Below are positions 1-3,299 of a stretch of 19,069 nt of DNA, piece by piece. A program made the translations under genes and the position numbers. This DNA is from Candidatus Thorarchaeota archaeon (GTDB lineage: Archaea; Asgardarchaeota; Thorarchaeia; Thorarchaeales; Thorarchaeaceae), in contig CP070761.1 in assembly GCA_020348985.1 (NCBI GenBank), forward strand, positions 156,331-175,399, given 5' to 3'. Within the stretch, counting starts at the first letter, position 1. Every line of letters starts with the position of its first letter. The notes beneath the pieces are model-generated. The model did not search any database. It was not told the origin of the DNA and was given only the letters and a program-made list of their open reading frames with translations.

Positions 1-2015
1 AGCTTGAAGGGGCCTATCCGGTAATTGTCAAGCCAGGGTCTCTCTCCAATAGTTGCGTGGAAACCAGCTACTGCTGGAGTCTTTCTCGCCGCAGCAGTGA
101 CTGGCTGAACCTCATGTCTGGTGATTTCTTCAATAGCTCTAACATCAGTATGAACCGTGTCAATGAGCCATTCCAATCCAAGTTCTTCGAGTTTCTCTTT
201 GGATGGCCTTCCGTGCTCATCCCAACCTCGATACTCGTAATAGGCATCCAGAAGAACATCCAGGTTGACGACATGGCCTTCTGCAGGACCTTCCGGTAGC
301 GGATCCTCCAACAGTCGCGGCGGCAATGTGTCGTCCGCTCTTGTGAATCCCTCTCTCAAGATGTAAGCGCGCTCTAGGTTGTAGATTCTTTCTCCTGTTT
401 TTCGGAACTCCTCGGCTGTGATTTTGAAACCCATTAAGGTAGACATCAACTTGGCCCAATCTTCCGCAGTCAGCACCATGCCCATGAACTTGCATCCACC
501 AATAGCATCGAAATTACCGAGTGCATCCTCGAAGTTCTTTACCACCAAAGCAGTCTCTGGGATTTCCTTCAGGGGGTCTCCAACATCTGCGTCATCGACT
601 ATCATGAAAGGCATCGCGAGAAAGGCTGGGCCTTCAATATACGCAGTAATGTGGTCTCCACCACGATTGGCAACAGCATAGGCTAGACCCGTCACCTTGG
701 CTGCTCGACTATCATAGGCAGGAAGCTCAAGACCTTTGACGTGCATCGCAAACCTCTCGGAACCCTGTCCGAGCTTTTCGGACATCCTCTTCGTGCCCTC
801 GGCGAGAAGATCTCCAATCCCCTCCCGCTTTCCAATCTTGTGCACTATGTCGACGATTAGCTGAGGATTACCCCAAGAGAAGTCCATCCCATCAACGTCC
901 TTGTCAGTGAGGATGCCCCTTTCATAGCATTCCATAGCAAATGCAACTGTGCTACCTGCGGAAATAGTGTCCATGCCGTATTCGTTGCACAGAAAATGAG
1001 CAAGTGTGATTGCCTCCAGGTTGTCCACACCACACATAGTCCCGAATGAGCCTATGGTCTCGTATTCAGGTCCTTCCCCTTTGCTCTTGAAGGGGCCCGA
1101 CTTGATTTCTGCAATTCTGCCGCAGTGGATAGGGCATGCGAAACATGGTTTACGTTTCACGAGAATGTTGTCATTTATCGCTGTCCCATTTATCATCTCG
1201 GCGTTCTCGAAGACGCCTGTCTGCCAATTCCTTGTCGGGATTCCACCCTTGACGTTGACGAGGTCCACCATAGTGGCAGTGCCATAAACCTCGAGGGTCA
1301 TTTTCAGGATGCTTTGGTTCACCCAGTCGAATCTCTGCTTCGCTTCAGCTTTGTATGCCTCCGGATCTGCGATGGGTATGTTCATGGTTCCCTTGGAAGC
1401 AATGGCCTTGAGGTTCTTTGACCCCATAACAGCGCCAACACCACATCGACCAGCCGCACGTCCCCAGTTTTCTTCATCACAGTCGTTCATGATTGCGGCG
1501 TACTTCACGAGGTTCTCCCCTGCAATGCCGATGCATGCTACATTGAATTTGGATCCATGTTTCTCCCTGAGGATTCTTGTTGTCTCAGAGGTGTTCATCC
1601 CCCAGATCTCTTCAGCATCTACAAGTTCTGCTCTGCCATCTTCAGTAAGCAGGTACACTGGCTTTGGCGCTTTGCCCTCGAAAATGACCCCATCAAATCC
1701 GGAGCGCTTGAAATCCCTTCCCCAAAAGCCTGCAGAGTTTGCCTGGCCCCAGCCATTGGTTAGGGGAGCCTTCGTAACCACACTGTACCTTCCTGTGCTA
1801 GGTGAAGACGTGCCAGTCAAAGGACCAGTCATGAAAATGAGCTTGTTTTCTGGTCCAAGGGGATCAATTCCCGGCTCCGTCTCATCAATGAGAATCTTGG
1901 TAGCTAATCCTGCACCTCCAAGGTACTTCCTAAGGGTCTCCTCATCTGGGAATTCCTCAGTGATGGTTGAGGTTGTCAGATTGACTCGTAGAATCTTACC
2001 CATGTAGCCATACAT
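1..2015 (-). CDS. aor: Tungsten-dependent aldehyde:ferredoxin oxidoreductase (AOR family), 3'-partial, with an in-frame C-terminal extension running off the window
   Basis: Hand translation from ATG at 2015: MYGYMGKILRVNLTT...YLGGAGLA, TKAPLT, GRAAGRCGVGAVMGSKNLKAI, CFACPIHC (4Fe-4S), GPEYET, CNEYGMDTIS, NRGGDH, YYEYRGWDEHGRPSKEKLEELGL. No stop seen down to base 1 (>671 codons). Confidence 0.96.
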   Translation of the reverse strand, partial: MYGYMGKILRVNLTTSTITEEFPDEETLRKYLGGAGLATKILIDETEPGIDPLGPENKLIFMTGPLTGTSSPSTGRYSVVTKAPLTNGWGQANSAGFWGRDFKRSGFDGVIFEGKAPKPVYLLTEDGRAELVDAEEIWGMNTSETTRILREKHGSKFNVACIGIAGENLVKYAAIMNDCDEENWGRAAGRCGVGAVMGSKNLKAIASKGTMNIPIADPEAYKAEAKQRFDWVNQSILKMTLEVYGTATMVDLVNVKGGIPTRNWQTGVFENAEMINGTAINDNILVKRKPCFACPIHCGRIAEIKSGPFKSKGEGPEYETIGSFGTMCGVDNLEAITLAHFLCNEYGMDTISAGSTVAFAMECYERGILTDKDVDGMDFSWGNPQLIVDIVHKIGKREGIGDLLAEGTKRMSEKLGQGSERFAMHVKGLELPAYDSRAAKVTGLAYAVANRGGDHITAYIEGPAFLAMPFMIVDDADVGDPLKEIPETALVVKNFEDALGNFDAIGGCKFMGMVLTAEDWAKLMSTLMGFKITAEEFRKTGERIYNLERAYILREGFTRADDTLPPRLLEDPLPEGPAEGHVVNLDVLLDAYYEYRGWDEHGRPSKEKLEELGLEWLIDTVHTDVRAIEEITRHEVQPVTAAARKTPAVAGFHATIGERPWLDNYRIGPFK

Positions 2016-2098: not shown

Positions 2099-2392
2099 TT
2101 GAAGGTCACAGTGAAGTTCTTTGCGCATTTAAGAGACCTCGTTGGAAAAAAGAGCACAATAGAGGTTGATTTGGAGGAAGGTGCCACAGTATCACGACTC
2201 ATGGCAGAGCTTTGTATGGATGAGCAGGTCAGGGCCACGTTACTTGACGAGAACAGGGAACTCAAGTCGGACATAACCATCCTGAAGAATGGTCGAGAGA
2301 TACGATTCCTGGAAGGGATGGACACCAAATTGGAGTCAGGAGACGAAATCTCGGTCTTTCCGGTTGTTGCAGGTGGAAACCAAACGGATTAA
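2099..2392 (+). CDS. moaD: MoaD/ThiS-family ubiquitin-like sulfur carrier (SAMP-like)
   Basis: TTG start after AAGGAG; KVTVKFFAHLRDLVG...ILKNGREI...LESGDEISVFPVVAGG followed by NQTD; next to AOR. Confidence 0.92.
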   Translation: MKVTVKFFAHLRDLVGKKSTIEVDLEEGATVSRLMAELCMDEQVRATLLDENRELKSDITILKNGREIRFLEGMDTKLESGDEISVFPVVAGGNQTD

Positions 2393-2421: not shown

Positions 2422-2871
2422 ATGCCGAAGTTTCTATCAGACGAATGGTTGGATTTGTACAAGGACGCGCTCAATGACAACGAGGCCTATGCCAAGGCAG
2501 CTTCGTGGTGGACTGGTGATTTCATTTTTATTGTCAGAGCCAGCGGCAATCTGGATCATGATGTCAGTGCTTTCATCGGACTGAAGCACGGCAAGTGCAC
2601 TGGTGTGAAGTCAATATCGAGTGAGGACGAATATGAACTTGTAGCACCGGGAGGCAGCGCAACCAGCGAGGACAAAATCGCAGTAGAATATGTCTATGAG
2701 GCTGACTACGACTCTTGGGTTCAGATTCTGAAGGGCGACCTGGATCCGGTTCGTGCTCTCCTTAGTGGACAGTCTAGGATCCAAGGTGACATGGCAAAGG
2801 TCCTCAAGGCCACAGATGCCGCGAAGGAACTCGTTCGAACTGCAGGAATGGTTGAAACCGAGTTCTTCTAG
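2422..2871 (+). CDS. SCP2 sterol/lipid-binding domain protein
   Basis: FLSDEWLDLYKDALN...YAKAASWWTGDF...ADYDSWVQILKGDLDPVRALLSGQSRIQGDMAKVL, typical of prokaryotic SCP2 proteins. Confidence 0.88.
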   Translation: MPKFLSDEWLDLYKDALNDNEAYAKAASWWTGDFIFIVRASGNLDHDVSAFIGLKHGKCTGVKSISSEDEYELVAPGGSATSEDKIAVEYVYEADYDSWVQILKGDLDPVRALLSGQSRIQGDMAKVLKATDAAKELVRTAGMVETEFF

Positions 2872-2891: not shown

Positions 2892-3299
2892 ATGGATGAG
2901 GCCGCACAGGAAACCCTGTTCATGACTTTCAGGGCCGTAATACAAGACGTCATCGCAGACAAGCGCAAGAATCCAAAGAACACAAAGACACTGGACGAAT
3001 TCGAGGCCAAGATGAACATCGGTCTACATGTTGAGGAGGCGTTCATCCTTTGGGTCAACCTGATAGCCGACGGCGGCGAATACACTCTCAACAAGGGCAG
3101 ACTGTACGATTATGACCTGGAACTGGTCTCCGACCCTGAGGACTTGATGTATTTCACGAATCGGCAGTACTCTGTCCTCAAGATGATGCTTACAAAGAAC
3201 AGGTTCGGAAAAAGGCGGCTTCGCTATAAGGGTGGAACAACAGGTAGAAATCTGGGCAAACTATTGGCATTACGAAAGGTATTGGTCTTGGACAAATAG
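2892..3299 (+). CDS. Hypothetical protein, possibly divergent SCP2-like fold
   Basis: 135 aa, GGTGA SD, 20 bp after the SCP2 gene; pattern WVNLIADGGEYTLNKG..YDLELVSDPEDLMYFTN...LRYKG recalls SCP2 topology. Confidence 0.6.
   Translation: MDEAAQETLFMTFRAVIQDVIADKRKNPKNTKTLDEFEAKMNIGLHVEEAFILWVNLIADGGEYTLNKGRLYDYDLELVSDPEDLMYFTNRQYSVLKMMLTKNRFGKRRLRYKGGTTGRNLGKLLALRKVLVLDK

Follow-up and report, generated by a model that had tools for sequence, protein, structure and literature searches.

The window considered here is a 19,069-bp stretch of DNA from a Candidatus Thorarchaeota archaeon (C1:156331-175399 of the assembly record GCA_020348985.1, here G000). Its left edge cuts through a gene for a tungsten/molybdenum-pterin aldehyde oxidoreductase (AOR) that almost certainly continues into an acyl-CoA ligase, the two enzymes forming a single polypeptide. 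The frame opens on the minus strand with the ATG at position 2015, begins MYGYMGKILRVNL, and is free of stop codons as far as position 3, where it is cut by the end of the contig. The 671 codons within the window (3..2015, minus strand) make up the 5′ 55% of a gene for a polypeptide of about 1210 residues, if the length of its orthologs is taken as a guide.

Architecture of the fused gene

Beyond the usual end of the AOR (...LEELGLEWLID), the frame passes through a linker of 38 residues (residues 620-657; 45..158, minus strand) and enters ERPWLDNYRIGPFK, the first 14 residues of the ligase half (3..44, minus strand), before it meets the window edge. An earlier sequence-only reading of this DNA had described the same course, with no stop after the AOR, an Ala/Pro/Thr-rich linker and then ERPWLDNYRIGPFK at positions 44-3, and every detail that it quoted is present. 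That reading also took [E/K]-[R/K]-P-W-L-x-x-Y to be the general N terminus of long-chain ligases; instead, the motif, in the form [KR]PWLxxYxxGP[FY]KL, is specific to the clade of AOR-linked ligases.

Six-frame searches of 40 related genomes gave orthologs in five genomes of the same family, with 83-88% identity across all 671 visible residues, the tail included. Since these five genomes keep the same in-register continuation, the run-on past the AOR end is not a matter of chance. Open ortholog frames of 1218-1224 residues are present in G019, G016, G004 and G012, and the frame in G024 ends at a contig edge. In the alignment of the junction, the conserved ...LEWLID is followed by a linker of about 40 residues, which is conserved in length and variable in sequence, with a mostly undefined consensus, and then by the conserved block GE[RK]PWLxxYxIGPFKL[QE]HSMAPYPE, 14 residues into which the contig stops.

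Full-length fused orthologs have 1204-1226 residues and match PF02730, PF01314, PF00501 (E about 1e-85) and PF13193 (E 7e-13). In loci L016 and L018, the complete open reading frame (ORF) of 1213 residues holds AFOR_N, AFOR_C, AMP-binding and AMP-binding_C in that single frame, which bears out the naming of the downstream domain as an acyl-CoA ligase; the roughly 550 further codons matching PF00501, with a motif of the TGGTTGxPKG type, are in the orthologs as predicted. The joint AFOR_N, AFOR_C and AMP-binding architecture recurs in related genomes, and a junction-restricted search of the protein database gave about 46 clusters (at 90% identity) with the fused architecture, whose named sources are Thorarchaeota, Hodarchaeota and Promethearchaeota only and whose annotations are generic. 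Among the relatives there was no early stop, no absence of the AMP-binding domain and no stop near base 150, any of which would have spoken against a fusion.

Catalytic residues of the two halves

The AOR half consists of an AFOR_N domain (residues 6-210; 1386..2000, minus strand; PF02730, E 1.2e-78) and the AFOR_C domains 2 and 3 (residues 237-614; 174..1307, minus strand; PF01314, E 3e-143), the latter also supported by alignment to the structure of Pyrococcus furiosus AOR (PDB 1aor). The window copy aligns to residues 1-601 of the 605 residues of 1aor with an E value of 2e-167, and the nearest structures are AORs sensu stricto (1aor, 9mqx and 9g7j). Three of the four cysteine ligands of the [4Fe-4S] cluster lie in the CFACPIHC motif (residues 291-298; 1122..1145, minus strand), as placed by the motif itself and by the 1aor alignment, while the fourth is the Cys of IGGCKF; all four are present in the window copy. 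The AFOR_C stretch holds this fourth Cys together with the active-site Thr, Tyr-Glu, Tyr, His and Tyr. In the numbering of the P. furiosus enzyme, the cavity and second-shell residues Thr243, Tyr312, Glu313, Tyr427, His448 and Tyr452 (PMC12096430) are all retained in the alignment to 1aor, and the motifs around the active site and cluster read CFACPIHC, YGTA, GPEYE, LPAYD, GGDHITAY and IGGCKF. The neighbours identified, in the window as in the orthologous loci, encode MoaD-like proteins, SCP2-like proteins and ligases; no gene for a small Fe-S subunit was seen among them, not every adjoining ORF having been scanned. Judged from its sequence, the AOR half appears to be a complete single-subunit enzyme of the ferredoxin-type ('Class I').

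The ligase half, as read in the orthologs, contains the core motifs A3 (TGGTTGxPKG), A5 (YGATE), the Asp of A7 in (M/T)GD and the A8 hinge DRIKDMINVSG, with the Lys of A10 in LP(L/M)T..MK(L/I), aligned to the SGK of 3g7s. The sequence TGGTTG[LQVH]PKG is found in 33 of the 36 full-length members and TGGTTGVPKA in two, and one member is off-pattern. Two inserts, PLKxG and SKVTGF, are missing from unlinked paralogs, as is the N-terminal motif. By its domains and motifs the second half is a complete adenylate-forming acyl-CoA ligase, and both halves look functional, with their catalytic motifs intact. The most similar enzymes are long-chain-type fatty-acid-CoA ligases (Archaeoglobus fulgidus FadD-1, PDB 3g7s, and the long-chain-type NCBIfam models); no named long- or medium-chain equivalog is reached, the best NCBIfam model, PRK06187, scoring 372 bits where 476 are required. 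In the 1213-residue orthologs, Pfam detects no domains besides the two of the AOR and the two of the ANL ligase, and neither a phosphopantetheine carrier (PP-binding) nor a reductase domain is present.

Conservation of the gene pair and repeated fusion

The nearest unfused AORs, which are 74-75% identical to the AOR half, are each followed directly by a separate ligase gene on the same strand, 72% identical to the fused ligase half. A search of 301 genomes of the Asgard phylum with the ligase half was followed by a reading of 38 orthologous loci (at least 57% identity). The genes are fused in ten of these loci (eight in family f1 and two in family f22) and split in 23, where the AOR precedes the ligase in the same orientation; three could not be judged because of a contig end, and in two the surrounding 4 kb contain no AOR. 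Open frames of 1003-1242 residues are present in 17 f1 genomes of the wider survey, and four more have frames of 701-945 residues that end at contig edges. None of six paralogous ligases taken as controls (40-43% identical, including one encoded in the window's own genome) is flanked by an AOR, SCP2 or MoaD gene.

The pair extends well beyond Asgard archaea. A survey of named species gave 25 ligase matches of at least 43% identity, and 22 loci could be judged, namely 21 with enough upstream DNA and L117, whose ligase is 41% identical. An AOR (52-88% identical) lies directly upstream in 21 of these 22 loci, the exception being L108. All but three of the 21 AOR-linked loci (18) are non-Asgard, and all 18 are split; they come from Bathyarchaeales, Dehalococcoidia, Syntrophomonadaceae, several Desulfobacterota, Anaerolineae and one genome labelled Pseudomonadota. 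The other 54 named-species loci, at 42% identity or below and mostly from Bacillales, have no AOR.

In a ligase tree rooted on the paralogs, the fused genes fall into two clades, with support of 99 and 95 in the Shimodaira-Hasegawa-like approximate likelihood ratio test. The f1 fused clade (99) is sister to the f1 split clade (100), while the f22 fused pair (95) is nested among f22 split genes. An approximately unbiased test rejects a single fused clade (log-likelihood difference 298.9, p 0.000125), the tested group having been defined after the tree was seen. Since the fused genes form separate clades and a single clade is rejected, the simplest reading is that the fusion arose independently at least twice within Asgard archaea, from one operon. 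The unit as a whole looks like an accessory, patchily distributed gene set. In the Dehalococcoidia metagenome-assembled genome (MAG) with L108, the ligase is 44% identical and has no AOR within 4-5 kb upstream; L108 may, like the AOR-less Asgard loci L068 and L071, represent a break-up of the unit, and in L068 a MoaD-like gene still follows the ligase.

Copy number also varies, and some Thorarchaeota genomes have the unit twice: genome G183 has one fused (C148) and one split (C236) copy of the unit, and G209 has two fused copies (C40 and C142), 85% and 77% identical to the query.

Predicted docking of the two enzymes

The complex was predicted for the split pair of locus L082, from a genome of the same family, with AOR residues 211-622, the whole ligase and an alignment of 26 rows for each. 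The interaction prediction score from aligned errors (ipSAE) is 0.84, compared with 0.00 for the best of three controls. In a benchmark, 58 of 80 solved complexes and two of 110 mismatched pairs scored this high, counts that apply only roughly because custom alignments were used here. Three runs agree in at least 95% of their contacts, and the predicted local distance difference test (pLDDT) value of the partners is at least 88. Since PDB searches with either half turned up no solved AOR-ligase complex, it is unlikely that the prediction simply reproduces a known structure.

On the AOR side, the predicted contacts are residues 230-256, 276-295, 465-471 and 514, and on the ligase side they are residues 11-12 (Pro-Phe/Tyr of the N-terminal motif), 233-243, 287-290, 308-313, 333-336 and 357-363. 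The Pro-Phe of the ERPWLDNYRIGPFK motif, at window positions 6-11, thus falls within the predicted contact with the AOR. Because the AOR contacts flank Thr243 and His448/Tyr452 in sequence, they suggest the mouth of the substrate funnel, over which the docked ligase would sit.

The contact positions are distinctive of the linked enzymes. Among the ligase contacts, a fraction of 0.71 is conserved in linked genes and 0.10 is matched in unlinked paralogs, as against 0.68 and 0.44 elsewhere in the protein (p 1e-9), and about 36% of the ligase contact positions are inserts without a counterpart in the paralogs. For the AOR contacts, the fractions are 0.69 in linked and 0.16 in unlinked genes, as against 0.75 and 0.47 elsewhere (p 2e-5). 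On this model, the two enzymes probably dock physically.

Companion genes

Three small genes stand divergently from the fused gene or follow one another on the plus strand. The first (2099..2392, plus strand) encodes a MoaD/ThiS-like protein of the SAMP1 or 'WorX' type, with 77.3 bits to NCBIfam SAMP1 (cutoff 60), a match to moaD_arch and a Pfam ThiS match over residues 5-93. Its ORF was listed with a GTG start at 2051, and the TTG at 2099 (MKVTVKFF..., with GGAG before it) is the likelier start; its C terminus has Gly-Gly followed by four more residues, NQTD. A MoaD-like gene adjoins the pair in 21 of the 38 orthologous Asgard loci and in nine bacterial loci. 'WorX' helper genes have been described beside Class I tungsten oxidoreductases (WORs) (PMC13328260), and the predicted protein in the window matches that description.

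The second gene, 'a' (2422..2871, plus strand), has a Pfam SCP2 match of 22.6 bits (cutoff 21.3). Its AlphaFold2 model (pLDDT 94.2, predicted template modelling score (pTM) 0.87) finds only SCP2 proteins at Foldseek ranks 1-10, with Thermus 2cx7 first (E 6e-12, TM 0.76/0.87, 31% identity) and yeast, human and insect SCP2 after it. The modelled structure is an SCP2 alpha/beta fold, and the protein is a putative lipid carrier. Gene 'a' is present near the pair in 32 of the 38 orthologous Asgard loci. The third gene, 'b' (2892..3299, plus strand), has no Pfam match in the window copy; an ortholog (L082:1170-1562) reaches 19.9 bits with SCP2, below the cutoff, and on this weak evidence 'b' may be SCP2-like. 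It is found near the pair in family-f1 loci and in two f9 loci. The MoaD-like gene, 'a' and 'b' recur alongside the pair, whether fused or split, and their order varies between loci.

In some Dehalococcoidales, Desulfobacteraceae and Chloroflexota, weak matches to 'a' (24-34% identity) lie near the pair (L094:492-884 and 1247-1630; L096; L123:7152-7550), while most bacterial pair loci carry a MoaD-like gene instead. The idea that the ligase adenylates the MoaD-like protein was dropped because no MoaD-like gene was detected in most f9 pair loci and because the ligase is of the fatty-acid type. In L016 the fused gene is directly followed by an ORF of 153 residues, which matches nothing in Pfam or NCBIfam, is not conserved in other loci and was placed outside the unit.

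Proposed function and its alternatives

That the two enzymes act in sequence on one substrate is highly probable. As the best overall explanation, held with some reserve, we propose a fused AOR-ligase that turns a poorly soluble aldehyde into an acid and then into an acyl-CoA. The aldehyde, of low solubility in water and fatty, isoprenoid or aromatic in nature, would be oxidized by the AOR half to the acid, with ferredoxin receiving two electrons. The ligase half, positioned over the mouth of the AOR funnel, would take the acid directly and use ATP and CoA to turn it into the acyl-CoA, which could then enter beta-oxidation or be put to use in lipids, and the SCP2 proteins would deliver or remove lipophilic ligands. 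The net direction from aldehyde to acyl-CoA is the one towards which we lean. Whether the substrate is long-chain or lipophilic is about evenly balanced in our judgement; the suggestion is made because the companion has an SCP2 fold and the ligase is nearest to long-chain-type ligases.

Several observations weigh against this proposal or against one of its supports. Oxidation to the free acid followed by the use of ATP looks wasteful in comparison with a CoA-acylating aldehyde dehydrogenase. All 25 listed NCBIfam models score below their cutoffs for the ligase half, which is why naming the ligase by NCBIfam was abandoned and why 'long-chain' here denotes nearest-neighbour similarity only. No ortholog was found in two relatives of the same genus, G001 (98% complete) and G002, and two f22 genomes have a ligase ortholog (57-58% identical) with no AOR within 4 kb (L068, G260:C1:4195647-4197308; L071, G116:C32). 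Extra DNA separates the AOR stop from the ligase start in L070 (G214; about 1 kb) and in L096 (a Desulfobacteraceae MAG; about 2 kb). As to docking, AOR domain 1 was left out of the complex model, which may expose an artificial surface; the comparison of contact positions with the rest of the protein had no surface-only control, and surface positions diverge more between paralogs anyway; and two of the contact residues lie next to the Fe-S cysteines, a possible docking site for ferredoxin. An AlphaFold2 model of a fused ortholog of 1200 residues (35-row alignment) has a mean pLDDT of 46.7 and a pTM of 0.39; with so shallow an alignment of such similar sequences, the model says nothing about how the domains are arranged. 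Finally, the missing ligase half was not found by tblastn in the window's own assembly, where the best match is a paralog of 38.6% identity, and the fusion in this genome is therefore read from its orthologs.

The architecture and the predicted docking fit the opposite direction equally well. The pair would then be an ATP-driven, ferredoxin-dependent carboxylate reductase, a tungsten analogue of the carboxylic acid reductases, in which the ligase would form acyl-AMP or acyl-CoA from the acid, and the aldehyde would arise when the AOR reduces either the acid itself or its activated acyl form; in a variant, acyl-CoA would be converted to the acid with a gain of ATP, and the acid then to the aldehyde, which would serve as an electron sink. 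Reduction would benefit from activation, since the acid/aldehyde couple has a lower potential than ferredoxin. Passages in PMC9295118 describe AORs as reversible and as the only enzymes known to reduce non-activated acids, and part of the entry for BamB (PDB 4z3w) describes this AOR-family enzyme as binding a CoA ester. However, AOR chemistry on acyl-AMP or acyl-CoA has no known precedent. The activated-acyl version is further disfavoured since the orthologs have no PP-binding carrier domain or other arm for an activated acyl group and since the aldehyde-oxidizing active-site residues are all unchanged. In addition, the loci that were read, which were probed with six query proteins only, show no conserved alcohol dehydrogenase gene next to the pair. 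The reverse direction is on the whole unlikely.

On a more novel reading, the pair would constitute a sixth, undescribed class of tungsten oxidoreductase, in which the two docked enzymes enclose a path from the tungsten site to the adenylation site; in its boldest version, the pair would run as a pterin-based counterpart of the carboxylic acid reductases, driven by ATP and dependent on ferredoxin. We regard this as a long shot.

A third reading is that the two proteins are co-expressed and sometimes fused with no hand-over of substrate, as members of one regulon that act on different molecules, the predicted contact being a modelling artefact. The length and variability of the linker, the absence of AOR domain 1 from the model and the two genomes that keep the ligase without an AOR would all be in keeping with it. 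On the other hand, the genes are adjacent across distant phyla while unlinked paralogs have no such adjacency, fusion appears to have happened twice independently, one enzyme class makes what the other takes as its substrate, and the predicted contact contains clade-specific inserts. Taken together, these points make an absence of hand-over improbable.

By comparative genomics, one AOR clade can be assigned a fixed partner, the acyl-CoA ligase, a fixed accessory, the SCP2 carrier, and a predicted contact surface that is open to testing, in Asgard archaea as well as in widespread sediment bacteria. A pair that makes acyl-CoA from lipophilic aldehydes with neither oxygen nor NAD would add a route for the anaerobic turnover of lipids, waxes, alcohols and hydrocarbons, with a gain of low-potential electrons. 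Were the reverse true, the pair would be a new biocatalyst for acid reduction, and it would allow anaerobes to make aldehydes from fatty or aromatic acids at physiological ferredoxin potentials. As a single gene, the fused form offers a ready construct for testing either direction.

Assembly context

The left edge of the window is a genuine contig end. Exactly 100 N stand directly to its left, and the 3.16-Mb G000 record is built of 132 pieces with 131 gaps, every gap being exactly 100 N and the last piece being empty. The first 63 pieces are in strictly falling order of length, while the remainder are unsorted; the order of the pieces is uninformative because of the uniform spacers and this sorting by length. 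The window is the fifth piece, one whole contig of 19,069 bp in a MAG-like assembly that is 86% complete. Since its edge is a real contig end, the gene cannot be extended leftwards in this record. The leftward extension proposed in the sequence-only reading leads through the 100 N to an unrelated EtfB gene, while the ligase continuation that it expected is found in the orthologs. Neither exact k-mers (15-127 nt) nor blastn showed an overlap of the contig end with any other part of the assembly, and the AOR tail has no tblastn match there.

With the contig stopping 14 codons into the ligase half, and the remainder on no contig of an 86%-complete assembly, the open frame in this genome might be an artefact or a remnant, such as a chimeric end of the contig, a stop codon lost through sequencing error or a truncated pseudogene. 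However, the linker and the 14 ligase residues are in register with intact orthologs, residues 1-671 show no frameshift at their high identity to those orthologs, and closely related split genes end in ...IDQIY followed by a stop after the WLID-type motif, which the window copy does not. Such an origin is very improbable.

Translated across the Ns, the record gives a single in-frame product of 952 residues with AFOR_N, AFOR_C and electron-transfer flavoprotein (ETF) domains, but a true joining of the AOR to the ETF beta subunit has practically no chance of being real and was rejected as a concatenation artefact, given the 131 identical 100-N gaps, the length-sorted pieces, the 5′ truncation of EtfB and the lack of any ortholog with this architecture. 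N-spacer-joined MAG records can thus create a false fusion next to a genuine one; in the G000 record, no adjacency or fusion that spans a spacer has any meaning, and windows at spacers need caution. The preceding piece itself (L002:7958-9900, minus strand, equal to G000:C1:154288-156230) carries the 5′-truncated EtfB (PF01012) and then an EtfA of 399 residues with an N-terminal 2x[4Fe-4S] ferredoxin domain (Fer4, ETF and ETF_alpha). Such a ferredoxin-fused EtfAB is of a type seen in anaerobes and is unrelated to the AOR despite the in-frame reading.

Relation to known systems

The AOR half shares with P. furiosus AOR the three-domain layout, the four cluster cysteines, the active-site residues and an alignment over the full length. 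That enzyme stands alone with its 605 residues, whereas the C terminus of the window AOR runs on into a ligase, and AORs of the window type have clade-specific residues in the loops that surround Thr243 and follow Tyr452. With A. fulgidus FadD-1 and PRK06187 the ligase half shares its ANL fold, the two Pfam domains and motifs A3, A5, A7, A8 and A10; to these it adds the N-terminal motif and the conserved inserts PLKxG and SKVTGF, and its A10 motif reads ..MK(L/I).. in place of ..SGK..

A five-class WOR scheme of 2026 has no ligase-linked class and makes no mention of Asgard members, and a physiological role is known for only a handful of the 92 tungsten oxidoreductase clades (PMC13328260). No published description of an AOR-ligase fusion or gene pair was found in the full-text literature, subscription-only papers being outside the scope. 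Each half belongs to a well-known family; the combination of the two does not.

Three systems carry out comparable chemistry. In Aromatoleum aromaticum, phenylacetate is activated by a CoA ligase. It is formed from phenylacetaldehyde in anaerobic phenylalanine degradation by the tungsten enzyme AorABC, with MoaD-like genes in the operon (PMC6365974). An AOR with a MoaD-like gene nearby is common to both systems; however, AorABC is a three-subunit, NAD-linked Class III enzyme, with no reported fusion to, adjacency to or complex with a ligase and no SCP2 partner. Eukaryotes employ a fatty aldehyde dehydrogenase and an acyl-CoA synthetase, with SCP2-type carriers in the handling of lipids and acyl-CoA. 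The overall chemistry, from lipid-derived aldehyde to fatty acid and acyl-CoA, is the same, but the eukaryotic route relies on an unrelated NAD-dependent aldehyde dehydrogenase, is oxygen-tolerant and uses separate proteins.

The carboxylic acid reductases, which are laid out as an adenylation domain, a carrier domain and a reductase domain, likewise combine an adenylate-forming domain with a domain that interconverts acid and aldehyde in one polypeptide. By the Pfam content of the 1213-residue orthologs, the fused enzyme differs in having neither a phosphopantetheine carrier nor an NADPH-dependent reductase domain. Its redox half is instead a pterin/Fe-S enzyme that lies N-terminal to the adenylating half, and its likely direction is the opposite one.

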